Notes: generated by a model from the letters alone, not told the origin. A stretch of DNA of 64,000 nt from Holophagales bacterium (GCA_016719485.1 JADJZB010000006.1:27375-91374); one strand, 5' to 3'; numbered from the stretch's first letter, positions 2,326 through 26,293 are shown. Numbers and translations: made by a program.

Positions 2326-2739
2326 ATGCGTAAGGCTCTCTCCGTTCTCGCGGCTCTTGCTCTCGCGCTCTCGGCCGGCGTGGCCTCCGCCCACGACGGG
2401 CACGCCCATGGGAAGGAAGCGATCCTCGGTACTGTCGCGCAGGTCCACGGTGACCACCTCGAGGTGGCGGACCCCGACGGCAAGACGGTCTCCGTCACGC
2501 TCACGAGCGCGACGACCTACCTCAGGGGAGACTCCGAGGCGAAGAAGGCCGACCTGAAGCCCGGTGTGCGCGTCGCCGTGGAGACGGCCGATGGCAAGTC
2601 GGGGCTCGAGGCCAGGATCATCCGGATCGGCGCCGAGGAGAAGGCTGTCTGGACCTGCCCGATGCATCCCGAGGTGAAGAGCGCCGGCCCCGGGAAGTGC
2701 CCGAAGTGCGGCATGTTCCTGGAGAAGAAGAAGGCGTGA
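2326..2739 (+). CDS. periplasmic copper/heavy-metal-binding protein with C-terminal Cys-rich metal-binding domain
   Basis: RBS acaggaga then ATG 2326; signal peptide MRKALSVLAALALALSAGVASA; His-rich HDGHAHGKE; C-terminal TCPMHPEV...PGKCPKCGM resembles the heavy-metal-binding domain seen on CusB/P1B-ATPase termini. Confidence 0.65.
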   Translation: MRKALSVLAALALALSAGVASAHDGHAHGKEAILGTVAQVHGDHLEVADPDGKTVSVTLTSATTYLRGDSEAKKADLKPGVRVAVETADGKSGLEARIIRIGAEEKAVWTCPMHPEVKSAGPGKCPKCGMFLEKKKA

Positions 2740-2767
2740 GGGCCGGTTCGGCCGGAGGGGGTTCGAC

Positions 2768-3385
2768 GTGACGCGCACAGGCCGGGTCCTCCTCGTAGCG
2801 GGAGCCGTCGTCGCCGTCGGCTGCGGGTACGCCCTCGCCGCGGCCGTCCGCCGGGGGTTCAGCGCTCGCGAGGAGCCGACGAAGGCCGAGGAGGTCGTGG
2901 CACGGACCTTCCGGGGGTGGGCGACACCGGAGGCGGCGCGCCGTGTGCCGAACCCCGTCCCCACAGGCCCCGAGGTCCTCGCCCGGGCGCGGGCACACTT
3001 CGCCGACCATTGCGCGAGCTGCCACGGGAACGACGGGAGCGGGCAGACGCCAATGGGCCGCCGCCTCTACCCGCGGGCGCCCGACATGCGTTCCGGCGAG
3101 ACCCAGCTCCTCACCGACGGCGAGCTCTTCTCCATCATCAGGAATGGAATCCGCCTTACCGGCATGCCCGCGTGGGGCAATGGCACGCCGCCGGAAGATG
3201 TCGGCACGTGGGAGCTCGTCCACTTCATCCGCCACCTTCCGAAGCTCACGCCGGCCGAGCTCGCGGAGATGGAGTCCCTCAACCCGAAGAGCCCGGCCGA
3301 GTACGAGAAGGCGAGGCAGATCGAGGCGTTCCTTTCCGGCTCCGGTTCGTCCGACGCGTCCCCGCGAGAACGGAGCGCGCATTGA
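2768..3385 (+). CDS. mono-haem c-type cytochrome
   Basis: CASCHG (CxxCH) haem-binding motif, N-terminal membrane anchor/signal, GTG start 28 nt after previous stop. Confidence 0.7.
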   Translation: MTRTGRVLLVAGAVVAVGCGYALAAAVRRGFSAREEPTKAEEVVARTFRGWATPEAARRVPNPVPTGPEVLARARAHFADHCASCHGNDGSGQTPMGRRLYPRAPDMRSGETQLLTDGELFSIIRNGIRLTGMPAWGNGTPPEDVGTWELVHFIRHLPKLTPAELAEMESLNPKSPAEYEKARQIEAFLSGSGSSDASPRERSAH

Positions 3386-3440
3386 AGCGCGAAGTGCAGC
3401 CTCGTGATGTCGTCCGGCTCGGGCAAGGGATGTAGGGCCG

Positions 3441-3779
3441 ATGCCCATCGTCGAGCTCGTCGCCTTCGACGGCTGCCCGAACCGCGACAGGGCTCGCGCG
3501 AACCTCCGGGCGGCCCTTGCCGAAGCCGGCCTCCCGTCCGTTTGGCACGAGCTCGACGCGAGCGGACCGAACGTTCCCGACCGCGCCCGGAGCTGGGGGT
3601 CTCCGACGATTCTGGTGGACGGCGTCGACGTCTCCGGGGCATCCGCGCCACCGGGCGGCCGCGCGTCCTGTCGCCTGTACGGTTCCGCGGGTGATCACGG
3701 AGCGCCTTCCGTGGCCGTGATCGTCGCAGCGCTTCGGTCCGGATCGGCTCGTCCGGGTGACAGCGGAGCGTCATCGTGA
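3441..3779 (+). CDS. thioredoxin/glutaredoxin-like fold protein (single-Cys GCP motif)
   Basis: MPIVELVAFDGCPNRD...SPTILVDG pattern fits a thioredoxin-fold beta-alpha-beta core; stop overlaps next start (GTGA). Confidence 0.4.
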   Translation: MPIVELVAFDGCPNRDRARANLRAALAEAGLPSVWHELDASGPNVPDRARSWGSPTILVDGVDVSGASAPPGGRASCRLYGSAGDHGAPSVAVIVAALRSGSARPGDSGASS

Positions 3780-4138
3780 CCCCTCCAGCGGCCCGTGCTC
3801 TGAGCAGAACGAGCCTCGTCGCGGCGCTCGTCTCGGCAATCGGCGCCTCCCTCTGCTGTATCGGTCCGCCCGCTGCAGGCATGCTCGGCCTCGCCGGGGC
3901 CGGCTCCTTCGCCCTCTTCCACGAGTACCGGCCGTACCTCGCCATCGGCACGATCGTCCTGCTCTGGGCGTCAGTCGGGCTTACCTACAGGACGAGTTCC
4001 GCGGCCTGCTGCGCGACCGGGACCGATTCGAGGCCATGGAATCCAGACCCGCGCGACCGGCGATGGCGGCGTCTGCTCTGGATCGTCGTCGCCCTCACGC
4101 TTGCCTTCCTGACGATCCCCTGGTGGTTCAGCCCCTAG
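3776..4138 (+). CDS. MerT-like heavy-metal (mercuric-ion type) transport membrane protein
   Basis: Cys-Cys pair in first predicted TM (GASLCCIGP) and HEYRPYLAIGTIVLLWASVGLTYR segment resemble MerT (ASACCLGP / LEPYRPIFIG...); translationally coupled to upstream ORF. Confidence 0.55.
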   Translation: MTPPAARALSRTSLVAALVSAIGASLCCIGPPAAGMLGLAGAGSFALFHEYRPYLAIGTIVLLWASVGLTYRTSSAACCATGTDSRPWNPDPRDRRWRRLLWIVVALTLAFLTIPWWFSP

Positions 4139-4244
4139 CGTTTCAGCTGGCGCGACGCCAGGGCGAAACACGATATGACCATAAGGTGATAGAATGACCC
4201 GTGACGAGCCAAGGCCGTCAACGGTCCGAAACAAGGAGGTTCCT

Positions 4245-5149
4245 ATGCGGTGTCTCAAGTCCATTCTCGGTGCAGCGGCTCTCGTCAGCGCCCTCGTCAC
4301 GTTTCCCGCCACGGCCCAGATGGGCGGCGGTGGGGCGAACGGCGGGCCCGGTGACGGCATGACGAACGGGACAGAGGATCTGGTCATTCCTGCGGGTGTT
4401 CGTGGAGAGGGCCGGTTCAGCTCCTTCTTCGTCACGGATCTCTGGATCAAGGCGACCGGGACCGGAACGGCAACGCTCTACTTCCACGCGGCGGACTCGA
4501 CGTCGACCGCCCCAGCCGCCACGGCGACGGTGAACCTCACCCAGCCGATTACGTACCTGCCCGACGTCCTTCAGGCCAACTTCGGTCTTGCTGCGGGCTT
4601 CGGGGCGATCCGCGTAGCGGCGAGCATCCCGATCTCGGCGACCGTGCGCGTCTACAACCAGACCGGGGCGGGTGCCTATGGCCTGGCGTTCATGGGAATG
4701 CCGAGCCGGATGGGAATGACCTCAATGCCCATGGGCGGCTCTTACGGCATGGACGAATACGCGATGTACATGCTCGGGCTCCTTCCGCAGCCCGGTAACC
4801 GCGTGAACGTAAACGTCGTTGCACGGCCTCGACGGGCGCTACCGGCGTCGTCGAGATCGTCGACGCCGACGGATCGACTCCGACGGGCACGGGCGCCAAG
4901 AGCCTTCCATTCACCCTCGCGGGGTACTCTTCGCACCAGTTCAACGACGTCCTTCTGAACGTCCATTCGAAGTTCCCGACCGGTGACGCCGGCCTCCAGA
5001 TCCGCGTGCGGATGAACCAGGGCGGAACCGGAATGGTGATGGCCTACGCCGTCGTGAACGACAACACGACGAATGACGGCTATGTCGTCATGGGCAGCAT
5101 GATGAACGGCGGCCGTGGCATGGGCGGCGGGATGATGGGCGGGCAGTAG
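4245..5149 (+). pseudogene. secreted Met-rich (MGM/MxM repeat) protein, reading frame interrupted near 4815-4830
   Basis: aaggagg RBS, ATG 4245, signal peptide MRCLKSILGAAALVSALVTFPATA; after ...GNRVNVNVV the annotated frame becomes Arg/Ser junk while the -1 frame continues as TASTGATGVVEIVDADGS...MMNGGRGMGGGMMGGQ to stop at 5147-5149. Confidence 0.5.
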
Positions 5150-5204
5150 CCCGGCGATCGGGCGTCCGAAGCCCCTGCCGTTTCGACGAGACATAGGCAG
5201 CGAT

Positions 5205-5236
5205 GAGGGCCTCCCTTCAAGGGAGGCATTTCTCGA
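5205..5236. terminator. bidirectional rho-independent terminator hairpin between convergent genes
   Basis: gcctccc-ttcaa-gggaggc stem-loop followed by T-rich tttctc, located between stop 5149 (+) and stop 5324 (-). Confidence 0.5.
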
Positions 5237-5323
5237 TCTCGTTCGTTACTGCGGCTCCGCAACGCACGGCGGCAATAGCAGCCCTGCATCGAGGCTGAGG
5301 TCCGGCAGGGCGGCTCCTCCCGT

Positions 5324-6259
5324 TCACGGCTCGACGACGACCATCATCGAAAGCCCGGTCGCGCCCGCCGCGCTGTCTCCCACGTGCTGCAGGTTGTGGC
5401 AGTGGAGCATCCACGTTCCTGGGTTGTCCGCTTCGAGGAGGCCGTCGTAGCGCTCCCCGGCGTTGAGCGGCAGCGTGTCCTTCCGGTAGGGCGACGGCAA
5501 CGGGAAGCCGTCCGTCGCCGTGACCGTCCAGCTCATCCCGTGCAAATGCATCGGGTGGACCATGTTTCCGGTGTTCACCATCCGGAAGAGGACCCTCTCG
5601 CCCTTGCGCACGCGGATGTCGGGGACGTTCGGGCCCGTCTTTCCATTGATGAGGAGCGTCCCCGTCATCATGCCCGACGAGGACATCCCGCCCCCCATTC
5701 CCATTCCTCCGCCCATCCCCATGCCGCCGCCCATCGCGCCGGGCATGGAGCCGAGCTCACCGACGACGAGGGAGACCTCGCGGTCCCATTCCTTAGGCGC
5801 GGAAGCCGGCGGCTCGACGACGAGGAGGCCGTAAAGGCCGCGGGCGATCTGAGCAGCGGAGCTGAAGTGAGGGTGGTACCAGTACGTCCCGGGCTCGGGG
5901 GCCGGGAACTCGTACGTGAACCGCGCACCGCGCGCCACGGCCGGTGCGGTGACTCCCGGGACACCGTCCATTCCGTGGGGAACGGGGACCCCGTGCCAGT
6001 GGATCGTCGTCGCCTCGGGGAGCTGGTTCACGAGCGTGACTCTGACGACGTCTCCGGCGGAGACGCGCAGCTCGGGGCCGGGGAGCGTCTGGTTGTACGT
6101 CCAGGCGACGACCTTCTGCCCGGGCGAGATCTCCCAGGTCGAAGCGGCGGCGGTGAGGGTGAACTCGCGCACCGCGCCGAGGGCGGGGGAGGCGGCGGTC
6201 GCGGCGAGAGCCCCGAGCAGGGGGAGCGCCGCGGTCAGGCGGAGTCGGGCGGTCGTCAT
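5324..6259 (-). CDS. small multicopper oxidase (cupredoxin) with Met/Gly-rich insert
   Basis: ATG 6259 with ggag RBS; signal peptide MTTARLRLTAALPLLGALAATAAS; copper ligand motifs HWHG, HPH, HCHNLQH, MHLHG; insert MGGGMGMGGGMGMGGGM typical of Cu(I)-binding CopA/CueO-like oxidases. Confidence 0.8.
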   Translation of the reverse strand: MTTARLRLTAALPLLGALAATAASPALGAVREFTLTAAASTWEISPGQKVVAWTYNQTLPGPELRVSAGDVVRVTLVNQLPEATTIHWHGVPVPHGMDGVPGVTAPAVARGARFTYEFPAPEPGTYWYHPHFSSAAQIARGLYGLLVVEPPASAPKEWDREVSLVVGELGSMPGAMGGGMGMGGGMGMGGGMSSSGMMTGTLLINGKTGPNVPDIRVRKGERVLFRMVNTGNMVHPMHLHGMSWTVTATDGFPLPSPYRKDTLPLNAGERYDGLLEADNPGTWMLHCHNLQHVGDSAAGATGLSMMVVVEP

Positions 6260-6345
6260 CGGGAGCTCCTTCTTGAGAAGAAGGGCGGCGCGACCTCGGG
6301 GTCGCGCCGCCCGGTGATCGTGGGCAGGGGCGGCTTCGCCGCGGG

Positions 6346-7041
6346 CTACTGATCGAGGGCGACCGTCCAGAGGAGGCGGCCGGTGAGGTCGACGGCGACG
6401 AGGCTCCGCCGCATTCCCTGGAAGCCGGCATCGCCCGGACCCATGTGCCCGGTCGTCGTGCCGCCGGTCGTCGTCGACGTCGGCGTCCCGACGAGGAGGA
6501 CGAGCCGGTCCGAAGCAGCCTCGACGCGCATCGCGACGCCGTCGATGGCGAGCCGCCACGCCTCGGCGCCGGTCGTGGAGCGAAGCGCGACGAGCGCGCC
6601 CGTTCGGGGTGCAGTCCCGGTCGTGCCGTACCCGTGTGGTTCACCGGTGGAGACGACGAGGAGGTCGGCGGCGAGCGTCAGGTCCCTGATGGCGTCCGTC
6701 GACCTCCAGGACCAGGCGTTGGTGCCGTTCGGGCCGATGGCGAGGAGCTCGTCGGCGATCGCGGACGTGCCGGTGCCCGTCAGCTCCCGGGAGACGACGA
6801 ACGTCGTCCCCGCAGGCGAGACGAGGACGCGGCCCATCCCTCCCATGTCGTCGCCCATGCCCCAGCCCATGCCCGAGCCGGAGCCCATCCCGCCGGTCCC
6901 TCGGGGACCCGTCGTCGACCCGCCGTGCCCGCTGCCGTGCCCACCGCTCCCCATGCCTCCGCCCATCATCTGCGCCGCGGCGGCGCCGGACAGGGAGCAG
7001 GCCAGGAACGCGATTGTCGCGATGGTTGCCGTTCGTCTCAT
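6346..7041 (-). CDS. secreted Gly/Met/His-rich protein (putative periplasmic copper-binding)
   Basis: ATG 7041 with gaggtga RBS; signal peptide MRRTATIATIAFLACSLSGAAAA; MMGGGMGSGGHGSGHGG and GMGSGSGMGWGMGDDMGGMG tracts; directly upstream of the multicopper oxidase, same strand. Confidence 0.5.
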   Translation of the reverse strand: MRRTATIATIAFLACSLSGAAAAQMMGGGMGSGGHGSGHGGSTTGPRGTGGMGSGSGMGWGMGDDMGGMGRVLVSPAGTTFVVSRELTGTGTSAIADELLAIGPNGTNAWSWRSTDAIRDLTLAADLLVVSTGEPHGYGTTGTAPRTGALVALRSTTGAEAWRLAIDGVAMRVEAASDRLVLLVGTPTSTTTGGTTTGHMGPGDAGFQGMRRSLVAVDLTGRLLWTVALDQ

Positions 7042-7100
7042 CGATCTCACCTCTTCACGAATTGCCCCGAGCCGAGGCTCGCGGGCTGCTTTCATCAAGC

Positions 7101-7116
7101 GCAACGCCCGTGCCAC
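7101..7116 (-). promoter_or_regulatory. sigma54 (-24/-12) promoter reading toward 6346..7041 and the oxidase gene
   Basis: minus strand reads TGGCACGGGCGTTGCGC = consensus TGGCACG-N4-TTGCW; ~60 nt upstream of ATG 7041. Confidence 0.5.
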
Positions 7117-7251
7117 TTCATGGGCGCTCCTTCCGGCCTCGTTCGGGTCGAAATGCCGCTTTCGGGCTTCGGCGAGGTGCCGGAGAAAGGGGCAAACCGA
7201 CCCTGACCCGATCGGCGGCGCCGACGGCATCTCGCGCGGACCGGCGGGTCC

Positions 7252-7980
7252 TCAATGGCCCTTCGGTCCCATCGGGGTGCTGCCGTGCGAGCCGCCCCCG
7301 TGGCTCTGGGGCATCTTCCCGTCCGGCGCCGCGCCCGGCATCCCGTGCTCGGACCCGGAGGACATGCCCGTACCGCCGTGCATTCCCCAGGAGTGCTCGC
7401 TCATCCCCATCGACCTCATCGGCGTCGATCGCGGCGCCGCCATCGGGCCGAACGTGCAGGCCTCGTCGGCCCGCACGAGGACCGGAGCCGCACCGGCCTT
7501 CGTCGGCCTCACTTCCACCGTCCCCTCGAAAACTGCGAGGAACGAGCGCCCGTCTTTCGCCACCTCCAGCCCGTACCGCGTCCCGCGGACGGCGAGGAGG
7601 GCACCGGGCGCGGCGACCGTCCGCGCTTCGGCCGATCCGTCGGTCAGCGCCTCGAAGAAGGCCTTGAGGCGCCCCCTCTCCACCGTGAGAAGGACGCCCG
7701 GGGCCCCGGCCGCGAGCCGGGCGCGCGTGCTCGAACCGATCTCGAAGCGCGCCTTCCGCTCCGGCACGGAGAGCACCGCCTTTCCCCAGAACCCGGTCCG
7801 GACGAGGTCTCCGGCCGCGGCCACGTCCCCGGCGGCGACCCGCACCTCGGCCGCCTCGTCGCCTCCCGGGGCGCGCAGCACCTTGCTCTTCACCTCGTCG
7901 AAACGGTAGGCCGGCGTCCCGGGCTCGATCGCGGCCAGGATGCCGGCGGCGAGCGCGGCCAGCGGCAGGATGAGCTTCAT
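7252..7980 (-). CDS. periplasmic FecR-domain protein with Met/His-rich C-terminal tail
   Basis: signal peptide MKLILPLAALAAGILAA; FecR-like core DLVRTGFWGKAVLSVPERKARFEIGSSTRARL; tail MRSMGMSEHSWGMHGGTGMSSGSEHGMPG...SHGGGSHG; start overlaps stop of upstream regulator (ATGA). Confidence 0.6.
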   Translation of the reverse strand: MKLILPLAALAAGILAAIEPGTPAYRFDEVKSKVLRAPGGDEAAEVRVAAGDVAAAGDLVRTGFWGKAVLSVPERKARFEIGSSTRARLAAGAPGVLLTVERGRLKAFFEALTDGSAEARTVAAPGALLAVRGTRYGLEVAKDGRSFLAVFEGTVEVRPTKAGAAPVLVRADEACTFGPMAAPRSTPMRSMGMSEHSWGMHGGTGMSSGSEHGMPGAAPDGKMPQSHGGGSHGSTPMGPKGH

Positions 7981-9362
7981 CGTTCCTCTCCTTCGCCTCC
8001 CTCGGCGACCGGGCCTCCCGCGGCCCGCAGCTTCCGGGCGAGCGTCTTCCTCTCGATGCCGAGCAAACGCGCGGCCAGCGTCTGGTTCCCTCCCGCCGAC
8101 GCGAGGACGGAGAGGATGTGGTGCCGCTCGACCTCCTCCAGCGTCGGCGGCGTCGCGGGCAGCGGCTCCCCCCCGATCGGCCTCGACCACGAGGAGGCCG
8201 CCGCGGGGCCGGCGCCCTCCTGGAGCGCGTGCTCGAGGGCTGCGGTGTCGTCGAGCCGCCCGGCGTCGATGAGCGCCCGGCGGACGACGTGGGAGAGCTC
8301 CCGGACGTTTCCCGGCCAGGTATGACCGGCGAGCCTCTCGAGGACGGCGGCCGAGACGGTCGCCACCTCGGGGAGACCGAGCTCTCGCCGCCCGAGGCGC
8401 TCGAAGTGGGTGACGAGCGCCGGCAGGTCGCTCAGCCGCTCTCGGAGCGGCGGGATTCGGATGACGTAGCCGGTAAGCCGGTAGTAGAGGTCCTCCCGGA
8501 AGCGTCCCTCGCCGACCATCCCTTTCACGTCGCGATGCGTCCCCGCCACGACGCGCACGTCGACCGCTTCGCCCGCCTCGGCCCCGACGGGGGTCACGAC
8601 GCGGTCCTCGAGGAACCTCAGGAGCTTGACCTGGAACGCGGCGGACACCTCGCCGATCTCGTCGAGGAAGAGCGTCCCTCCCGCAGCCTGCGACAGCGCG
8701 CCGCGGCGATCCCGCGAGGCGTCGGTGAACGCGCCGCGCCGGTGGCCGAAGAGCTCGCTCTCGAGGAGCGTGTCGGGGATCGCCCCGCAATGGACGGGGA
8801 CGAGGGGGCCGGAGCCGCGGCCGCTGAAGCGGTGGAGAGCGCGGGCGACGAGCTCCTTCCCCGTCCCCGTCTCGCCGAGGACCAGCACGGGCACTCGGAG
8901 GCGCGCGACCCGCGCGACCGCCTTGTAGACCTCGACCACCGCCGGGTGCGACCCGACGATCATGCTCTCCGGGCCGTCCTCGGCGGGCGCGTGACCGGCG
9001 GGCCGCGCGGCGAGGGCGGCCGACACGCGGTCGAGGAGGACCGAGACGTCGAACGGCTTGGCGAGGTAGTCGAAGGCGCCCGTCTCCTCCGCGGCGGCGG
9101 CCGTCTCCACCGAGCCGCGCGCCGTCATCAGGATCACCGGAGGCGGCGCCGGCCGCGCCTGGACCTCGCGAAGCACCGACAGGCCGTCGCCCCCGGGCAT
9201 GTAGATGTCGCAGAGAATCACGTCCGGGCGGGCCGTCTCGAGCTCCCTCCGCGCGTCGCGCGCTCCGCGGGCGCGCGCCACCTCGAACCCGCTCGCCTCG
9301 AGGGTCAGGGCCACCATCTCCCGGATGGCGTCGTCGTCGTCGATGACGAGGGCACGCGGCAT
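7977..9362 (-). CDS. sigma54-dependent response regulator (NtrC family: receiver + AAA+ + HTH)
   Basis: receiver VIDDDDAIREM...ILCDIYMPGGDG; Walker A GETGTGKE, GAFTDA motif, ESELFGH, C-terminal HTH; 461 aa. Confidence 0.85.
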   Translation of the reverse strand: MPRALVIDDDDAIREMVALTLEASGFEVARARGARDARRELETARPDVILCDIYMPGGDGLSVLREVQARPAPPPVILMTARGSVETAAAAEETGAFDYLAKPFDVSVLLDRVSAALAARPAGHAPAEDGPESMIVGSHPAVVEVYKAVARVARLRVPVLVLGETGTGKELVARALHRFSGRGSGPLVPVHCGAIPDTLLESELFGHRRGAFTDASRDRRGALSQAAGGTLFLDEIGEVSAAFQVKLLRFLEDRVVTPVGAEAGEAVDVRVVAGTHRDVKGMVGEGRFREDLYYRLTGYVIRIPPLRERLSDLPALVTHFERLGRRELGLPEVATVSAAVLERLAGHTWPGNVRELSHVVRRALIDAGRLDDTAALEHALQEGAGPAAASSWSRPIGGEPLPATPPTLEEVERHHILSVLASAGGNQTLAARLLGIERKTLARKLRAAGGPVAEGGEGEER

Positions 9363-9382
9363 CTACGTCCTCCTTCGGGGCT

Positions 9383-11196
9383 CTACGCCCCCGCCCGCCG
9401 CGGGAAGCGTGACGCGGAAGAGGCTCCCCCCGAGCCGGGAGCCTCGACGTCGATGCGGCCCCCGTGCCACCTCACGATCTCGGCCACGAGGGCGAGGCCG
9501 AGACCGAGCCCCGGGACGGTCGCCGCGGAGCCCCCGCGGGCGAATCGCCGGAAGATCTCCTCTCGCTCGCCGGGCGGGATTCCCGGCCCCCGGTCGCGGA
9601 CCGTGAGGCAGACCGATTCGCCGCCGGCCGGGCCCACCGCCACGTCGACCGGCTCGCCGGGCGCGAACTTCAGGGCGTTGCCGACGAGGTTGTCGACGAC
9701 GCGGACGAGGAGCGCCGCATCGCCCTGTACGGCGAGCCCGGGCTCGCCCGAGAACCGGATCTCCCGCTCCGCCCCCCGAGGCAAGGAGCGCCGTTCGCTC
9801 CTGGACGAGCTCCGGGAGGTCGACGAGCGAGGAAGACCCTTCGGAAGTCCCTCAGCTTGATCCTCTCGAGGTCCAGGAGCGTCTCCACCATCTCCGCGAG
9901 CCGCGCGCTCTCCCGCGCGACCATCCCGGCGACCGACCGGCGGCGCTCCTCGCTCAGGTCGAACCCGGAGAGGAGCTGCGCGAGCCCCCGCACCGACGTC
10001 AGCGGCGTCTTGAGCTCGTGCGCCAGGACGCGGCGCGCTTCCGCGTCGTCCTTTCGCTCGCTCTCGAGAGTGGCGGCGAGCGCTTCGAGCTCGACGATGC
10101 GCCGGACCGCGACCGCGGCCCGGCGGCGGTCCGCGAGGAGGCGCCACAGCTCGGGGCCCGCCGTCGCGGCGAGGCCGCCGAACGCCGTCGCGAGGAGCGG
10201 CAGCTCCCGCCCGGCCCAGAGGAGCAACACCATCCCGGCCGGAACCGCGAGCAGGGGGACGGCGGCCGCCGCGGGAGCCAGACGAGGCGCGACCCGCCGT
10301 CGCAGAGCCGTCGCACCACCCGTCAGGAGACCGGCGAGTCCCCCGGCAACGAACGGAGGGAGCCGTTCGTACAGGTCTCCCGTCAGGAGCGACTCGGTCG
10401 CCGCCGCCTGCACGAGGACGCCCGGATCGGGCGTTCCGCGCTCCGATAGAGGCGACACGACGCGGTCTCCGACCCCTGCCGCGACCGAGCCGACGAAGCA
10501 GACCCGGCCCCGGAGCGCGCCCTCCGGCAGGCTCCCGCTCAGGACGTCCGCGGCGCTCCAGGTCGGCACCTCGTCCGCGGAACGGAAGCCGGGCCGGATC
10601 GGTGCCCCGACCGGCAAGGGGATCTCCGGCCGCAGGAGCCGGGCCGCCGCGAAAGGCATCGCGCCGAGGGAGAGCCCGTCGAGCTGCCGGGTCGCGAGGA
10701 AGCCGCGAACGACGCCGTCGCGATCGACGGCGAAGCTGACGTGCGCCACCTCTGAGGCCGCGCGCAGGCCGGAAGCGGGGAGAATCCATCGCTTTGTCCC
10801 GTCCGGCGCGGCGGCGAGGACCGACGGTCTCGCCGCGAGCGCGGTAGCGAGGGCCTCGTCGCCCGGGCGTGTCTCCGCGAGGAGGAGGTCGATCGCCACG
10901 GCGGCGGCCCCTGCCGCCCCGATCCGGTCCACGAGGGCGGCCAGGCGCTCCCGCTCCCAAGGCCACGGCCCGACAGCGCCGATCGCCTCCTCGTCGACGA
11001 CGACCGCCGCGACGGATATCGCGGCCGCCCTCGGCCGGGTCCGCAGGAGCGCGTCCCGAACCAGCAGCTCGGCGGAATCGACCCAGCCCGCAGCGGCAAC
11101 GAGCGTCACGAGGAACGCAGCCGCCAGCGGCGGGCCGAGACCTTCAGCCGCCCGAATCCGGGTCGCCTTCACCTCGGGGAGAGTACGTCTGCGCAC
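9383..11196 (-). pseudogene. CHASE2-domain sensor histidine kinase, frame disrupted between HisKA and HATPase regions (~9760-9850)
   Basis: ORF 9670..11196 has TM + CHASE2-like region and H-box VLAHELKTPLTSVRGLAQLL; the HATPase region (VVDNLVGNALKFAPGEP...GLGLGLALV) lies in a different frame (ORF 9383..10966); a third frame gives HK-like LVDLPELVQERTALL between them, implying two indels near homopolymers. Confidence 0.65.
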
Positions 11197-11324
11197 ATTA
11201 GAACCGCCTTAGAGGTACGGGCTCCTCGCGCGGTTCGTGCAGGCGACTGAGCACCTCCGGCGAGGCGCGGTCGAGGCCCGATCCCCCCGCTCGGGTTCGT
11301 CCCTCCCTGCTTCTCCCATCGATC

Positions 11325-13628
11325 TCACGCCTCCACCATCCTCTTCCGGTCGCGGAAGGCGACCCCGCAGACGACGAGGAAGACGACCTCGACGAGGGCG
11401 ACGACGATCATCCACTTCACGATGGGCGAGTCGCCCATGCCGTAGGAATGCATACCCGCGTTCAGGACGTAGTTCACGCCGAGGTACGTCATCAGAATCG
11501 TCTGGAAGGCGAGGATGCTGATTGCCGCCGCGCCGAACGTCCCGATCACCTTGTCGACCTTCAGGTGGAGGATCGCCATGTAGGCGAGGAAGGCGACGAG
11601 CGACCAGACCTCCTTCGGGTCCCAGCCCCAGTAGCGGCCCCACGACGAGGCGGCCCAGACGGAGCCGGTCAGGATCCCCGCGAGGAGAAAGATCGACCCG
11701 ACGTGCATGTACCAGTAGAGGAGCTCGTAGAGCTTCTCGACGAGCGCGCCGCGCCCCCTGCCGAACGCGGCGAAGCCGATCTGCATGTGTGCGACGACGA
11801 CGCCGAGGGCGAGGACGGCGTAGCCGACCATGATGATTGGGACGTGGATCGCGAGCCACGGCGTCCCCGCGAGAACCGGAGCGATCGGATGGATGAAGCG
11901 GTCCATCGGGAGGAGGTCGGTGAGCGCCATCGTGAGCGCGGACATCGCGGCGGCGTTCAGGACCACGGTCCGGTTCCGCATCAGGAGGTAGGCGATCACG
12001 GCGAAGAGGCCGACGCCCCAGCCGAGGAAGAGGAGCGATTCGTACATGTTCGCCGCGGGGATCCGCTCTCCCGCGGCCCAGCGCATCCCGATCCCCCACG
12101 TCATCGCGCCGAAGCCGAGGACGAGGAGGCCGAACGAGGCCCAGTCGAGGGCCTTGCTCGCCTTCCCCGACGCCGCGATCGAGACGACGAGCGAGGCGAG
12201 GAGGACGAGCCAGGCGAGGCGCGAGGGGTTGACCCGGTTGTAGAGGATCTCCCCCTCCACCTTTTCCTTCGTCGGCCAGCCCGGAAGGCGCGGCCCGTTC
12301 GCGAGGGCAAGGAGCGCCGGCGTCGAGACCTCGAGCGGGACGTTCCAGCGGGCCTTCGGGTCGCCCGGGGAAGGGATCGGCCGGACGACGTCCCGCTGGA
12401 GGACGGCATAGAGAGCGTTGAGGCGTTCCTCGAGCTTCTCGGCGTCCTTGAGGACACCGAGACGCGGCTGGTCGTGCTGCGCGGCTTCACCGGCCGACTC
12501 GATGAGCCGCATCACCGTCGGGTTCGAGACGAGCTGGTGGAAGGATGCCTGCCTCGCCGCCGGGTCGAGGCCCGCCGCGGCGGCGAGTTCCTTGCTGACC
12601 TTCACGGCCGGTGCCGCTGACGCGCTTTTCGGGTCGAGGAGCCACCCGATGAACGTCGCCGCCGGGTCCTGGCCGTTCCAGGAGCGGGAGCCCGTCACGT
12701 TCCAGACCGTCTCTCGCGCGAGCGTGTCGAGCGGCATCACGCGTCCGTCGTGCTGCACCGGCAAGCGCTTCAGCGCCTCGACCTCTGCCGGCGTCTGCGC
12801 GCTCGCCGTGCCGGCCAGCCCCGCGAGGGCGAGGACGGCGCCGAGCGCCTTCCCCATCGTCGGAAGGGACATCCCGGCCTGCGCGACCTTCGCCTCGAGC
12901 TCGCTCCGGCTCTTCTCGCGCTCGCGAGCCTGCGAGACGCGCGTCAGGAGGACGAGGATCATCCCGAGGACCAGCGTCGCGTAGCCGGCGAAGACGACGA
13001 GCTGGCCCGGGTCCTTCGAGACTGAGAGCACAGTCGCCTCGCGCCCGCCCTGTTGCTGGTAGCTCGACTGGAAGAGTGACCAGCCGCGGTGATGGAGCGG
13101 GGTGTTCATGAAGATCCGCGTCGGAAAGCTCTTTCCAGTGTCGAGGTCGGTGACGACGACCTGGCTCGCGAAGCCCGAGGGACGCTTGGTGCCCTGGTAG
13201 GTCTCGAGGACGAAGTCGTCGAGCTTCACCGAAAAGGGGAGGTCGTGCTTCGCGAGGACCGTCCCCTTCTCGTCGACGTGCTCGACCGTCGAAGACGCCT
13301 GCCCTTCCCAGAGCCCGAGCTGCCCCTCCGTCTTCCCGAAGTAGGTCAGCGCCGCGCCGACGAAGATGAGGAGAAGAGAAGCGTGCGTCGTGACGAAGCC
13401 GATCCGCTGCTTCCCCCACGGGAAGTGGGTCGCGATCGAGCAGGCGACGTTGACCGCGAAGAGCCCCTGGAGCCCCAGGAACCACCACGAGTAGTAGACG
13501 AGCCGTCCCGCGGTCGCCGCATCCGTGCGGGACTCGAGGATCGTCCCGGCCGAGAGGCCGAGGAGGAGTACCACGAGGAGGACGACGGCGAGCTTGAGGG
13601 ATGCAAGGGTGCCGACGAGCTTGTTCAA
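11325..13628 (-). CDS. cytochrome c biogenesis system II fusion protein CcsBA (ResB-like + CcsA/ResC-like)
   Basis: N-terminal ResB-like membrane/periplasmic region; C-terminal CcsA WWD motif WGRYWGWDPKEVWSLVAFLAYMAILH; 767 aa. Confidence 0.8.
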   Translation of the reverse strand: MNKLVGTLASLKLAVVLLVVLLLGLSAGTILESRTDAATAGRLVYYSWWFLGLQGLFAVNVACSIATHFPWGKQRIGFVTTHASLLLIFVGAALTYFGKTEGQLGLWEGQASSTVEHVDEKGTVLAKHDLPFSVKLDDFVLETYQGTKRPSGFASQVVVTDLDTGKSFPTRIFMNTPLHHRGWSLFQSSYQQQGGREATVLSVSKDPGQLVVFAGYATLVLGMILVLLTRVSQAREREKSRSELEAKVAQAGMSLPTMGKALGAVLALAGLAGTASAQTPAEVEALKRLPVQHDGRVMPLDTLARETVWNVTGSRSWNGQDPAATFIGWLLDPKSASAAPAVKVSKELAAAAGLDPAARQASFHQLVSNPTVMRLIESAGEAAQHDQPRLGVLKDAEKLEERLNALYAVLQRDVVRPIPSPGDPKARWNVPLEVSTPALLALANGPRLPGWPTKEKVEGEILYNRVNPSRLAWLVLLASLVVSIAASGKASKALDWASFGLLVLGFGAMTWGIGMRWAAGERIPAANMYESLLFLGWGVGLFAVIAYLLMRNRTVVLNAAAMSALTMALTDLLPMDRFIHPIAPVLAGTPWLAIHVPIIMVGYAVLALGVVVAHMQIGFAAFGRGRGALVEKLYELLYWYMHVGSIFLLAGILTGSVWAASSWGRYWGWDPKEVWSLVAFLAYMAILHLKVDKVIGTFGAAAISILAFQTILMTYLGVNYVLNAGMHSYGMGDSPIVKWMIVVALVEVVFLVVCGVAFRDRKRMVEA

Positions 13629-13836: not shown

Positions 13837-19234
<5,398 letters not shown>

Positions 19235-19235
19235 C

Positions 19236-20471
19236 TCAGTCCTCCTCCACGAGCGAGGCCTTGGCGAACTCCGACTTCAGGACGAAGCTCCCTTCGGTGG
19301 CGACGACGTCGCCAGCCTTGATGCCGGCGAGAATCTCGGTGAAGCCCTCGAAGCTGTGTCCGACCTCGACGTAGTGCCGTTGGAAGACGCCGGGCTCGAC
19401 CTGAACGAAGACAGTCGAGCGACCCTCCAGCCTCTGGATGGCCGACTGGGGAACGGCCACGATCGGGTGCGCCTCGCTCTGCGGCTTCGGGACATCGACC
19501 TGGGCAGTGACGAAGAGACCCGGGCGGAGCTTCTCCGAACGGTTCTCCACCGTCGCGCGGACCCGGACGCTCCTCGTCTGCGGATCGACGACGCTGCCGA
19601 GGAAATCCACGCGGCCACGGAAGGTCTCCTGGGGATACGCGTCGGTTCTCAGCGTTACAGACAGCCCTTCGTGAAGGAGGGCGAGGTCTTTCTCGTAGGC
19701 ATTGAGGAACACCCAGACGGACCCCAGGTCGGCAATCGTCATGAGCGGCTGCAGCGCCTCGAAGAGGGCGCCGGAGGTCACCTTTCGGTCGATGACGCGG
19801 CCGGCGAAGGGAGCCCGGAGCGTGAGCGTGGCGCCGTCAGCCGCGGAGAGCCTGTGGTCGACAGCGTTGGCTCGCAAACGCGCGATCGTCTCTTCGCTGT
19901 CACCGTAGAGGTGGAGCGTCCTCTCGGCGGAGGCGACGGCGGTCTTCTTCGCCAGGTAGTCGCCTTCCCGAGCCTGGAACTCCCCGGCGCTGATGGCATT
20001 CGCCTCAACGAGCTTCCTGGCTCTCTCGTAGGCGCTGGCCGATACGTTGAAGCTCGACAGCTCCGTCACGAACTCCTCGCGCGTCCGACCGAGGTCGACG
20101 CTCTCGATCACGAGGAGCGGATCGCCGGGCTTTACGCGAGCGCCCAGGTCGACCGGAATCGACGTCACCCGGCCCTTGACGTTCGCGGCGACCAGGAGGA
20201 GGCGGTTCTCGTCGAATCCCACGCTGCCGGTGAGAGAGAGAATGTGTGAGAGGTCGACGATCTGGACCTTCCACGTCGTGATGCCGGCCTCGGCGATCGC
20301 GGCGGCGGTGAGATGGACGCGCTGCGGGGTCGCAGGCTCTTCGACCTTCTCGGCGGTTTTCGCGGGGGCTTCAGGCGCGGGAGCGGCACCGCGGCCCTTG
20401 CCGCAGCCGGCGAGAGCGACGGCGGCGGAAAGGGCGAGGCCGGAAAGGAGGATGGTGGGCTTCCTGTTCAC
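19236..20471 (-). CDS. efflux RND periplasmic adaptor (membrane-fusion) subunit
   Basis: lipoprotein-like signal LALSAAVALAGC; barrel-sandwich/beta-barrel hybrid pattern; stop abuts RND start. Confidence 0.85.
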   Translation of the reverse strand: MNRKPTILLSGLALSAAVALAGCGKGRGAAPAPEAPAKTAEKVEEPATPQRVHLTAAAIAEAGITTWKVQIVDLSHILSLTGSVGFDENRLLLVAANVKGRVTSIPVDLGARVKPGDPLLVIESVDLGRTREEFVTELSSFNVSASAYERARKLVEANAISAGEFQAREGDYLAKKTAVASAERTLHLYGDSEETIARLRANAVDHRLSAADGATLTLRAPFAGRVIDRKVTSGALFEALQPLMTIADLGSVWVFLNAYEKDLALLHEGLSVTLRTDAYPQETFRGRVDFLGSVVDPQTRSVRVRATVENRSEKLRPGLFVTAQVDVPKPQSEAHPIVAVPQSAIQRLEGRSTVFVQVEPGVFQRHYVEVGHSFEGFTEILAGIKAGDVVATEGSFVLKSEFAKASLVEED

Positions 20472-21727
20472 TTGCTATCTCCCGTGGTGTCGTCGTTCGG
20501 GCCGAGGAGCCGCCGAAGCTCCGCGATCGCGGTCGCGAGCTCGAAGCGGGCGCGGATCTCCTCGCGGCGGGCCTCGCGGGCCGTGCGCTGGGCGTCGAGG
20601 AGGTCGAGGAGGGACGTCTCGCCCTCTTCGAAGAGGAGGCGGGCGAGGCGGACGCTCTCGGCGGCGGATGGGAGGAAGTCTCCCTCGAGGGAGGCGACCT
20701 GGACGGCGAGCGTCTCGACGTCCCGGCGGCGTGTCGCGAGGTCGGAGAGGAGCGCGAGCCGCACGCGCTCGGCGTCCGCGGCCCGGAGGCGACTCTCGGC
20801 CTCGGCCCGCGCGACGTCTCCTCGTCGGGCGTTCCAGAGGGGCAGGGTGAGGCCGAGGGCGCCGCCCCATGCCTCGCGATCGAGCTCGTTCTGCCGGAAG
20901 AAGGAGAAGCCGAGGTCCGGGACGCGTCCTCTGCGGGCGCTCGAGAGGAGCGACGAGGCGCGGGCGGCCTCGGCGCGGGCGCGGATCAGCGCCGGGCTTC
21001 GCTCGAGGGCGTCGGGGTGCGCGTCGAGGAGGGCGCGCATGCCGTCGGGGTGCCGTGGAAGCTCGCCCGCGAGGCGAAGCGGGGTGGGGAGAGGCTCTCC
21101 CGCGAGTGTCCTCAGGATGCCCTCCGCGGCGAGCTCCTCCCTGTAGGCGGCGCTCAGCTGACGATCCTGCCGGAGCCACTCGACGCGCGCCTTGATCCGA
21201 TCAACCTCACGCGCCTCGCCGAGCGAGGCACGGCGGGTCATCAGGTCGAGGAGGGAGCGGGCGTCCTCCGCGGAGGCCCGGCCCACCTCGACCTGCGCCC
21301 GCGCGAACAGGAGACGCTCGTACGTGACCTGCGCGTCGAGCTCGAGGCCCCAACGCGTCGCGAGGCCCTCGGCCCGCAGCGCGCGGGCCTCGTGGTCGGC
21401 GGCCTCGATCGACGCCGATCGGGCCGGAAGCCAGGGGATCGACTGCGAGACGGAGAAGCCCTTCTCGGTCTTCGGCGACCCCGAGCCGTCCGCCGCCCGA
21501 CCCTCTCCGAGGCTCAGCTCGAGCGTCGGGTCGGGGAGAAGGCGTGCCGCCTTCGACGCCGCCGCGGCGCTTGCGTCGAGCGCCTGCGCCGACCGCGCGG
21601 ACGGGTGCGACTCCAGGACGAGCCGGACGTAGTCGTCCATCCGGAGCGCGTCCTGCGCGTGTGTTTCGAGGGTGCCGGCCATGGCTGCAAGCGCGAGCAC
21701 CCGGCCGCAATACGATCGAATTCCCAT
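20468..21727 (-). CDS. TolC-family outer-membrane efflux protein (CzcC/CusC-like)
   Basis: signal peptide, two repeated coiled-coil/beta halves typical of OEP family; start overlaps adaptor gene (4 nt). Confidence 0.8.
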   Translation of the reverse strand: MGIRSYCGRVLALAAMAGTLETHAQDALRMDDYVRLVLESHPSARSAQALDASAAAASKAARLLPDPTLELSLGEGRAADGSGSPKTEKGFSVSQSIPWLPARSASIEAADHEARALRAEGLATRWGLELDAQVTYERLLFARAQVEVGRASAEDARSLLDLMTRRASLGEAREVDRIKARVEWLRQDRQLSAAYREELAAEGILRTLAGEPLPTPLRLAGELPRHPDGMRALLDAHPDALERSPALIRARAEAARASSLLSSARRGRVPDLGFSFFRQNELDREAWGGALGLTLPLWNARRGDVARAEAESRLRAADAERVRLALLSDLATRRRDVETLAVQVASLEGDFLPSAAESVRLARLLFEEGETSLLDLLDAQRTAREARREEIRARFELATAIAELRRLLGPNDDTTGDSK

Positions 21728-22893: not shown

Positions 22894-23304
22894 CTACCTC
22901 CAGTTGCGGTCCATGAGCCCGTGGTCCTCTACGTCGTCACGCGCGCCCTCGACGCCAGTACCGATAGGCTTCGATCCACTCGGTGCCGCTGGGCGGGCGG
23001 GCAGGCAGGGGCAGGTCGAGGATGGGGATTCTCTGCCGGGGGGGCCCGCGACACAGAGGGCAACGATGCCGTCGTCCGTCAACTCCACTCGCTTGACCGA
23101 AACCGCCACGCCAAGAATTTCCGTCGAGAAGGGGAGGGCGAGGTGATCCTCTATCAGCGTGTAGAGCCCCGACTGCTGCTCGTCGTCGTTGTACGTATCG
23201 ACGGTCGCCTCGGCGACCAGCGCATCGAGCTGTGGGCCTGAGAGACGCACCCGTCGCCCGGCGGGGCGAGCGGGGGCCGGCCGGACCGTCTGGCGACTCT
23301 TCAT
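22894..23304 (-). CDS. hypothetical small protein translationally coupled to the primase-helicase gene
   Basis: ATG 23304 overlaps the upstream stop (ATGA); LSGPQLDALVAEATVDTYNDDEQQSGLYTLIEDHLALPFSTEILGVAVSVKRVELTDDGIVALCV reads as genuine protein; C-terminus crosses a C7 homopolymer so the end is uncertain; antisense ORF 22798..23241 rejected. Confidence 0.4.
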   Translation of the reverse strand: MKSRQTVRPAPARPAGRRVRLSGPQLDALVAEATVDTYNDDEQQSGLYTLIEDHLALPFSTEILGVAVSVKRVELTDDGIVALCVAGPPGRESPSSTCPCLPARPAAPSGSKPIGTGVEGARDDVEDHGLMDRNWR

Positions 23305-25802: not shown

Positions 25803-26293
25803 CCGGCGACGTCTTCTCCCGCCAGTGAGAGGACGCGTTTTCGAATGTCGGGCGACATCCACATCCCGGAGGCAGCGAGAAGGTCCACGAGCGGAGCTAC
25901 GGAAGGGACGAGGCGAGCCTTCTTGGCCTCGAGCAGGACACGGAGGGTGCCCCAGGTGGTCAGGCCGGCGGCGCGGGCCGTCCGCCGCGCGAGCGCATCG
26001 TCGAGAAGGAGGATTCGCTGAGGGTTTTCGAGGGCGAGCGCCATCGCGGCGAGCTCTCCGGCTCCGAGATCGAGAGTCAGCCACTCGGAGGGGGTCGATT
26101 TCGGGTCGACGGTCTCCAGCCAGGCCAGGTTGTCCGTGTCTGGCACCTCGAACCCGAGTGCCCGCCCTTCGCCGAGCTCCCTCAGGACCGCCGACGGAAC
26201 CCAGACCGACCCGAAGAGCTGGTCAAGCCAGCCGAGAGCTCCGATCCGACCCAGGTAGAGAAGGGGAGAGGTGTTAGTGATCGAGCCTGGCAT
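25799..26293 (-). CDS. DUF3368-type PIN-like nuclease domain protein (putative toxin)
   Basis: MPGSITNTSPLLYLGRIGALGWLDQLFGSVWVPSAVLRELG pattern typical of DUF3368; overlaps upstream ORF by 20 nt and the downstream primase-helicase by ATGA. Confidence 0.55.
   Translation of the reverse strand: MPGSITNTSPLLYLGRIGALGWLDQLFGSVWVPSAVLRELGEGRALGFEVPDTDNLAWLETVDPKSTPSEWLTLDLGAGELAAMALALENPQRILLLDDALARRTARAAGLTTWGTLRVLLEAKKARLVPSVAPLVDLLAASGMWMSPDIRKRVLSLAGEDVAG

Follow-up and report, generated by a model that had tools for sequence, protein, structure and literature searches.

How is the multicopper oxidase module at this locus switched on, and what does its sensor perceive? The locus lies in a 64-kb stretch of DNA from a Holophagales bacterium (GCA_016719485.1 JADJZB010000006.1:27375-91374; G+C ~70%), hereafter the window, which its closest relatives place in an uncultured Thermoanaerobaculia/Holophagales-type acidobacterium. 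On the minus strand, genes for a P1B ATPase, a CcsB/CcsA fusion, a CHASE2 sensor kinase, an NtrC-type activator and a FecR-like protein follow one another and, after a gap of 210 nt, are followed by genes for a Gly/Met/His-rich secreted protein and a multicopper oxidase (Table 1). A sequence-only reading of this DNA had proposed that the kinase, the activator and the FecR-like protein form a dedicated circuit that drives sigma-54-dependent expression of a copper-oxidising and copper-binding module. We predict with high confidence the wiring from kinase through regulator to a sigma-54 promoter, and on balance we think it probable that the whole forms a self-contained, copper-responsive periplasm-to-promoter circuit within a heavy-metal resistance island.

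Promoter and enhancer-like dyads

The element TGGCACGGGCGTTGC, which lies ahead of the Gly/Met/His-rich gene (the first target), is an exact match to TGGCAC-N5-TTGC on the coding strand, with its GG and GC 10 bp apart. There are 60 nt from the C of the -12 GC to the target ATG (7041), a ribosome-binding site GAAGAGGTGAG precedes this ATG, and we infer a transcription start near 7090. The earlier reading had described a near-consensus -24/-12 element about 60 nt upstream of the same gene, at 7101-7116; the distance is borne out, the match proves to be exact, and the coordinates become 7115..7101. No other exact TGGCAC-N5-TTGC occurs in the 64 kb, and shuffled sequences give an expectation of 0.06. 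The match could be due to chance, the target genes being read from an unrecognised sigma-70-type promoter: one or more exact matches arose in 6 out of 100 shuffles of the 64 kb, sigma-70 promoters of acidobacteria are ill defined, and a sigma-70 consensus scan of positions 4000-11600 gave no promoter. However, the site is on the right strand, in the 210-nt gap, beside the only sigma-54 activator gene of the window (a motif search of the 64 kb found none besides that at 7977..9362), and it is conserved across clades along with phased dyads. We therefore consider a chance match extremely improbable.

The pattern of conservation is specific. In the clade that includes loci L004 and L007 (loci are cited by their L numbers), the -24/-12 cores are kept and the spacer is changed: TGGCAC-GGGCG-TTGC in the window versus TGGCAG-GCCGC-TTGC in that clade. 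Between these two clades, both of which have the five genes from kinase to oxidase and whose target proteins are 52% identical, the gap from the FecR-like gene to the target can be aligned only in the -24/-12 element and two upstream blocks, which more distant loci reveal to be palindromes. Most related loci have the motif GGCAC-N5-TTG[CAT] at the corresponding position.

NtrC-type palindromes were looked for upstream of the promoter, as the earlier reading had suggested, and tandem dyads of the form GGGTC-N5-GACCC were found there at conserved offsets, ~106 and ~62 bp ahead of the inferred start. Their spacing of 43-44 bp puts both on about one helical face. A dyad with at most one mismatch lies at -38/-39 from the first G of the -24 GG in eight lineages (L009, L017, L018, L019, L021, L056, L060, and L066) and at -81/-82 in seven (the window, L009, L017, L019, L021, L035, and L056), the background over all fetched DNA being 1.8e-4 matches per position. 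The two-dyad layout recurs in at least eight diverged lineages among the 90+ related acidobacterial loci. Exact dyads number 29 in 864 kb, and most of those listed lie just 3′ of the FecR-like gene or 5′ of a relocated oxidase; in one soil branch there is just one site, GCGTCATTCTGACCC, of related sequence, at -41. This conservation across lineages suggests that the GGGTC-N5-GACCC dyads are putative binding sites of the regulator.

Of the sigma-54-like sites in the 64 kb, only the promoter at 7115..7101 has dyads at the canonical offsets; those at 2898, 56470, and 62240, each with one mismatch, lack them and were set aside. An exact dyad, GGGTCGAAGAGACCC, at 1618-1632 was rejected as a second regulator site. 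It lies between convergent gene ends with no sigma-54 element near, flanked by a receiver-only regulator gene (1522-2172) and a plus-strand gene ending near 1446, and is probably the stem of a bidirectional terminator. A dyad-like site at 3768 falls within overlapping coding sequence and was also discarded.

Just 3′ of the sigma-54 element, in the inferred 5′ untranslated region, there is a conserved stem, GCCCGCGAGCC / GGCUCGGGGC, at ~7058-7083 on the minus strand, and the GCCCG/CGGGC arms that flank it are kept in the L004/L007 clade. An Rfam scan of 4000-11600 at E <= 1 returned no match, and no known riboswitch or small RNA accounts for the 5′ untranslated region or for the hairpin that lies between the two target genes.

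Table 1. Features of the window, in window coordinates; the circuit and its targets are listed first, the neighbouring genes last
Feature	Position	Strand	Description or basis
CHASE2 sensor histidine kinase gene	9363..11196	-	CHASE2, transmembrane segments, HisKA, HATPase_c; Pfam and three-frame translation
NtrC-type sigma-54-dependent response regulator	7977..9362	-	REC, AAA+, HTH_8; Pfam
Secreted FecR-fold protein, 242 aa	7252..7980	-	Signal peptide; beta-sandwich ~25-187; disordered Met/His-rich tail ~188-242
Distal enhancer-like dyad GGGTCGGTTTGCCCC	7203..7189	-	One mismatch to GGGTC-N5-GACCC; centre 82 bp upstream of -24 GG
Proximal enhancer-like dyad GCGGCATTTCGACCC	7159..7145	-	Two mismatches; centre 38 bp upstream of -24 GG
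Sigma-54 promoter element TGGCACGGGCGTTGC	7115..7101	-	-24 GG at 7114-7113, -12 GC at 7102-7101
First target, 231-aa secreted protein	6346..7041	-	Signal peptide, ~45-residue disordered Gly/Met/His-rich segment, ~160-residue partial PQQ/BamB-type beta-propeller
13-bp GC-rich hairpin, then UUCUUCUC	6312..6283	-	After the first target gene and before the oxidase gene; may act as a partial terminator or stabilise the RNA
Two-domain multicopper oxidase, 311 aa	5324..6259	-	Pfam Cu-oxidase_3 (1e-41), Cu-oxidase_2 (6e-30), Cu-oxidase
Fused CcsB/CcsA cytochrome c biogenesis protein	11325-13628	-	
P1B heavy-metal ATPase	13837-16164	-	Domain search
CusCBA-like RND efflux operon	16133-21727	-	OEP, CusB-type adaptor, AcrB-family pump
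Gene cluster	2326-4140	+	HMBD protein, cbb3-subunit-III-like cytochrome c, 112-aa protein, MerT-like protein
Met-rich secreted protein, 300 aa	4245-5149	+	Family unassigned; convergent to oxidase; frame broken near 4824 (one-base deletion)

The conserved cassette and its targets

The genes that the sequence-only reading had placed upstream of the target and co-directional with it (a CHASE2 kinase, a sigma-54-dependent regulator, and a FecR-domain protein), as well as the oxidase next on the same strand, were all recovered, by Pfam matches and, for the FecR domain, by a fold search. The regulator matches Sigma54_activat (PF00158) over its full length (1.4e-62), Response_reg (PF00072; 2.2e-28), and HTH_8 (PF02954; 2.5e-14). 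Its sigma-54 contact loop reads GAFTDA, not GAFTGA, as it does in nearly all cassette orthologues; the divergent regulator of L026 has GSFTGA. Since GAFTDA is given as a function-keeping variant in a Desulfovibrio survey, with DVU2106 as the example (PMC4641369), the regulator should be able to work with sigma-54. It scores under the NCBIfam equivalog cut-offs for ntrC (392.6 vs. 558.6), AtoC (361.9 vs. 714), and ZraR (324 vs. 760) and is thus a family member distinct from all three of these regulators; looking up its exact sequence returned no record.

The regulator stop and the FecR-like start overlap, as had been noted, in the form ATGA. Against PF04773 the FecR-like protein scores 22.8 bits (cut-off 24), many of its homologues have a precomputed PF04773 match, and a sequence search against the PDB gave no match. 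In the AlphaFold2 (AF2) model the core (~25-187) has a predicted local distance difference test (pLDDT) score >90, and the tail, disordered from ~200, one <50. The best Foldseek matches are the C-terminal domain of PupR (6ovk) and the anti-sigma factor BDI_1681 (4m0h), with E ~4e-6, a probability of 1.0, and a root-mean-square deviation of 3.2-3.7 A over 133 columns. At the level of the model, this confirms the beta-sandwich fold of the FecR/PupR periplasmic signalling domain. The protein is not a FecR-type anti-sigma factor of the cell-surface signalling kind: it has only a signal peptide before the fold, with neither a cytoplasmic anti-sigma domain nor a membrane helix, and its neighbours are a kinase and a sigma-54 activator, with no extracytoplasmic function (ECF) sigma factor or TonB-dependent transducer.

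The tail of the FecR-like protein opens with a conserved PMRSMGMSExSWG motif (PM-x-S-MGMSE-x-SWG) and is variable thereafter. It has 7-11 Met and 2-6 His in ~65 residues in the branch of the window; in other branches it is Gly/Pro-rich or His/Pro-rich, with few Met. Among soil acidobacterial branches (L086, L089, L077, L078/L079, and L094), we note tails with 6-8 His, many Pro, and almost no Met, together with propeller targets that begin with a GHGGPGGPGG-type arm. These compositions may reflect a different ligand specificity.

The kinase matches CHASE2 (PF05226; 1.1e-39) and HisKA (PF00512; 1.1e-12), with the H-box HELKTPL. Its periplasmic CHASE2 domain is Met-poor (0-3 Met in the oxidase-associated lineages), and the idea that a Met-rich CHASE2 domain might sense the metal directly was set aside.

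For the first target, the AF2 model shows residues 1-68 (including the signal peptide) as disordered and 70-231 as confident beta strands. Its profile matches PQQ-repeat and BamB chains, and its Foldseek matches are beta-propellers; at ~160 residues the beta domain can form a partial propeller at most. The homologues are all from Thermoanaerobaculia-type metagenome-assembled genomes, some with PF13360. The oxidase has all four copper-ligand motifs (HWHG, WYHPH, HPMHLH, and HCHNLQH, at residues 87, 127, 235, and 286), and its PDB relatives include the two-domain laccases 2zwn and 3g5w. It matches the NCBIfam copper_res_A subfamily (3e-51) under the cut-off, nor does its score reach the cut-offs of the CopA and CueO families. 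An insert of 31 residues, nine of them Met, separates the two cupredoxin domains, and we predict the enzyme to be a likely candidate for a cuprous oxidase.

A scan of one genome per species gave 16 cassette loci, all in Acidobacteriota and with two copies in several genomes, and a metagenome scan gave 77 further loci. In nearly all of these (90+), the genes for the kinase, the activator, and the FecR-like protein stand side by side and point the same way; in an exception group (L026, L038, L049, L054, L055, L057, and L064), the FecR-like gene is read divergently from the other two. Contigs L001-L003, from close relatives, have the five genes in an order identical to that of the window, and the L004-L008 clade, with target proteins 52-53% identical to that of the window, keeps the five genes amid flanking genes that differ on both sides. 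In almost all lineages, the gene directly behind the sigma-54 element encodes the small propeller protein, whose N-terminal arm, depending on the branch, is either Met-rich or GHGGPGGPGG-like. The oxidase gene varies in its place: it lies behind the propeller gene in the window clade, the L004 clade, L036, and L070; directly behind the FecR-like gene in L024, L025, and L044, with its own sigma-54-like element retained in L024/L025; and upstream of the kinase in L020 and L022, where it again has a sigma-54-like element to itself, joined in L020 by an exact dyad. As judged from this comparison of loci, the conserved primary target is the small propeller protein, and the oxidase is an add-on of Met-rich lineages. 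The predicted four-gene core (kinase, regulator, FecR-like protein, and propeller protein) is widespread in Acidobacteriota; the branch of the window is Met-rich and appears to have recruited the oxidase.

In the Holophagae, L104 (Geothrix sp. contig JARLGO010000129) and L105 have a cassette with a Met-rich tail, followed by genes for 143-aa, 260-aa, and DUF5666 proteins that stand where the propeller and oxidase genes are expected. The L104 cassette is divergent from CusB(HMBD)/CusC genes. Since Geothrix has cultured species, it could give a cultivable test organism.

From these parts we propose the following mechanism. The FecR-fold protein would be a co-sensor for the CHASE2 kinase, its Met/His-rich tail binding Cu(I) or Ag(I). 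The kinase, as its domain architecture suggests, would phosphorylate the NtrC-type regulator, which would assemble on the two dyads and use ATP to open the sigma-54 holoenzyme at TGGCAC-N5-TTGC. The propeller protein, with its Met/Gly/His-rich disordered arm, probably buffers copper in the periplasm or serves as its chaperone, and it may also feed back on the sensor in the way that ZraP does on ZraS. Read-through of the hairpin would also express the two-domain oxidase, which would convert Cu(I) to Cu(II). We add, as a tentative and somewhat doubtful extension, that the FecR-fold partner may be a ligand-specificity module: the variable tail would capture the signal and hand it to CHASE2, and the propeller protein, with an arm of matching composition, would compete for that ligand or for the sensor, giving negative feedback. 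If true, this would provide a first physiological signal (Cu(I)/Ag(I)) for a CHASE2 sensor and would imply that CHASE2-FecR pairs in general follow a "swappable tail" logic.

Signal, kinase frame, and hairpin

The dedicated circuit of the sequence-only reading is upheld by the cassette, conserved in 90+ loci, and by the conserved -24/-12 element and dyads that follow it. The part concerning the copper module stands less well: the main target is the propeller protein and not the oxidase, a hairpin precedes the oxidase, the kinase frame is broken in the window, and copper itself is read from Met/His composition and gene neighbourhood. The last three points, taken up below, weigh against the circuit as we propose it, as do several others. 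At the promoter, the dyads of the window are themselves imperfect, and the proximal dyad, at about -62 from the inferred start, is nearer than classical NtrC enhancers. A motif search for rpoN found none in the 64-kb window; the conserved -24/-12 elements would be indirect evidence of sigma-54 use by these organisms.

Copper as the signal is a prediction that we hold with moderate confidence. For a comparison across lineages, loci with enough flanking DNA were grouped by hand at 85% FecR-core identity. The oxidase is present in six out of 10 lineages with at least seven tail Met and in none of the 15 with five or fewer (P = 0.0012, Fisher), and the Met fraction of the FecR-like tail correlates with that of the target arm (Spearman 0.87, n = 14); both statistics are from hand-grouped lineages without phylogeny correction. 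The metal genes found near the cassette in Met-rich lineages without the oxidase are a P1B ATPase (L022, L043/L048, and L067) or CusB/CusC (L104). The 15 Met-poor lineages have the cassette without the oxidase and with a Gly/Pro/His-rich tail and target, so the ancestral signal may not be copper. With the wiring unchanged, the sensor could then respond to the envelope, to redox state, or to another metal, with the propeller protein as the real output and the oxidase and Met residues as secondary. That the near-universal target is the propeller protein rather than the oxidase fits such a signal, and full-text literature searches gave no CHASE2 ligand. Set against this, three proteins of the unit and the convergent neighbour have Met-rich segments in this branch, the oxidase tracks Met-rich tails at the significance given above, and the neighbouring genes encode copper/heavy-metal exporters. 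We regard a signal other than copper as unlikely.

The kinase gene of the window is not in a single frame. A first frame covers CHASE2 and the membrane segments through to HisKA, a second covers a short stretch (VDLPELVQERTALLAS...), a third covers HATPase_c (8.5e-24), and the final ~20 codons are back in the second. Positioned against the intact orthologues L012, L014, L001, and L028, the single-base indels are at ~9839 (+1), ~9769 (+1), and ~9429 (-1), within 410 nt, and all three are in or beside short G runs. Including the one near 4824, there are four frame-breaking single-base indels relative to relatives that are 92-98% identical. They appear to be either homopolymer read errors or recent gene decay.

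With three frame breaks within 410 nt, the circuit may be dead in this strain: the kinase would be a true pseudogene, the regulator orphaned, and the promoter silent or driven by cross-talk. The packing of the indels favours such a relic, as does the fact that six neighbouring genes (those for the ATPase, CcsBA, activator, FecR-like protein, target, and oxidase) are unbroken over ~15 kb. However, indels at short G runs are typical of read errors, and the nearby Met-rich gene likewise has a single-base indel. Nor are substitutions in the kinase raised above those of its neighbours (97.8% vs. 96.9% identity to L012). The kinase is whole (~556-603 aa) in every relative with gene calls, one orthologue of 603 aa having CHASE2, HisKA, and HATPase_c together, and both halves align in the remaining loci that cover it. 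A relic is, in our judgement, somewhat unlikely.

Upstream of the kinase in L004 and L007, at a distance of 54 nt, is a gene for a trypsin/DegP-like serine protease (~2834-3890). A role as a proteolytic signalling partner, by analogy with FecR/RseA, was considered and dropped, the gene being found in the L004/L007 clade only.

The hairpin between the target genes is the sole terminator-like match of a terminator scan in 7.6 kb, with a fold z-score of -4.3 versus shuffles. It is kept in the window clade and missing from the L004/L007 clade, whose two target genes are 47 nt apart. Such a terminator-like structure means that co-transcription of the oxidase is not assured, and its U-rich tail may halt transcription before the oxidase. 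On that reading the oxidase would be outside the sigma-54 transcript and expressed separately or hardly; the 13-bp GC stem with its tail, the z-score, and the retention in the window clade all agree with it. The distance from the hairpin to the oxidase start is only ~24 nt, however, which leaves no room for a separate promoter, and the U tract is interrupted. In addition, the L004/L007 clade has the same gene pair without any hairpin, and other lineages have a sigma-54 element immediately ahead of the oxidase. We think termination ahead of the oxidase decidedly unlikely. Most likely, the hairpin attenuates or stabilises a common transcript, with more propeller protein than oxidase as the outcome. 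The U-rich tail after the hairpin (UUCUUCU; 6262-6282) can pair with the Shine-Dalgarno sequence of the oxidase, AGAAGGA, a hint that translation may be controlled along with transcription.

The surrounding island and known systems

By its predicted gene content, the region 1-22 kb is a metal-resistance island, with a part list resembling the curA cluster of Myxococcus xanthus. The MerT-like label in Table 1 is taken from the Pfam hit of the L001 orthologue. The open reading frame of the P1B ATPase contains an in-frame N-terminal P-II-like domain (PF00543; 3e-10), which makes it an unusual fusion or two genes without a stop between them; relatives are annotated with a 640-aa ATPase. The 300-aa protein encoded convergently to the oxidase is Met/Gly-rich at its N- and C-terminal ends and gave no match in a Pfam search. 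In L020, L022, L024, L025, L036, and L044, a homologue comes directly after the oxidase and is encoded on its strand, and the protein is likely an accessory or partner of the oxidase that, in this window, lies outside the sigma-54 transcript. Beside the island, at 23304-26084 (minus strand), a 927-aa protein combines the archaeo-eukaryotic primase domain of TOTE conflict systems (9.6e-96) with a ResIII/DEAD helicase and is, by these domains, a predicted defence/conflict gene.

Among known systems, CusRS, CopRS, and PcoRS respond to copper or silver in the periplasm, and the genes under their control include those for Met-rich periplasmic proteins, oxidases (PcoA), and efflux pumps. They act through OmpR-family regulators at sigma-70 promoters, and the metal is bound directly by the periplasmic domain of the kinase. 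Here, in contrast, the CHASE2 domain is Met-poor, and the output is through a predicted sigma-54 promoter. ZraPSR of Escherichia coli and Salmonella consists of a metal-responsive kinase and a sigma-54 activator, with a small periplasmic metal-binding protein as the main target, which modulates the sensor. The circuit proposed here resembles it in the predicted sigma-54 output and in a periplasmic target that would bind metal and may feed back on the sensor. The differences are that ZraS has another periplasmic sensor, that ZraP is all-helical rather than a propeller, and that ZraPSR includes no oxidase.

With the two-domain oxidases mgLAC (2zwn) and that of Nitrosomonas (3g5w), the oxidase of the window has in common its two cupredoxin domains and four copper-ligand motifs. 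CueO and PcoA have a similar Met-rich insert but three domains instead of two. The literature compared contains no description of a Met-rich inter-domain insert in a two-domain oxidase, nor of sigma-54 control of one.

A CHASE2 membrane sensor gene beside a secreted FecR-domain gene, implying joint action, has been described before: in the "BiofilmReg" operon of Burkholderia and a PA4035-like pair of Pseudomonas aeruginosa (PMC5192318), and in a Campylobacterota CHASE2 adenylate cyclase cluster with a FecR-domain protein (PMC9239204). The combination of CHASE2, FecR, and metal control, which had been called unusual, is therefore familiar as far as the pairing goes, and the link to metal looks new. 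Those systems have OmpR/CreB-type regulators or a cyclic AMP output, their FecR proteins come with LysM or are outer-membrane proteins, and the reports on them mention neither sigma-54 nor a Met/His tail nor metal genes. Our full-text searches found no paper tying CHASE2 to copper.

CHASE2 is a widespread bacterial sensor domain, and its frequent pairing with FecR is known from gene context only. The acidobacterial cassette offers a cheap test system, with a defined promoter, two candidate activator sites, and a sensor/transducer set of three proteins. The Met-rich tails that track the presence of the oxidase suggest copper or silver as a plausible ligand, which would be a first testable clue to a CHASE2 signal. 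The analysis also flags the small partial beta-propeller protein as a conserved, uncharacterised periplasmic stress output.

The closest proven system is CorSR of M. xanthus, a sigma-54-dependent two-component system that has been shown experimentally to control the copper-induced curA cluster (PMC3707914). That cluster comprises the oxidase CuoA, a His-rich periplasmic protein, a PQQ_2 lipoprotein, the P1B ATPase CopA, and a cbb3-subunit-III-like cytochrome c, with four predicted sigma-54 promoters and an additional input from an ECF sigma factor, CorE (PMC3707914). Both systems have an NtrC-type sigma-54 regulator, and the island of the window has a counterpart of each of these curA parts. 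We liken the two by architecture: gene order differs, CorS is a HAMP-type sensor without CHASE2 or a FecR partner, and CorSR is proven by experiment whereas the circuit of the window is predicted from sequence. Sigma-54-dependent copper control, shown so far in Myxococcus, would thereby be extended to Acidobacteriota, a phylum poor in experimental regulation data. The circuit of the window is of the sigma-54-dependent metal-response type, known in kind, and its new part is the CHASE2/FecR sensor pair.

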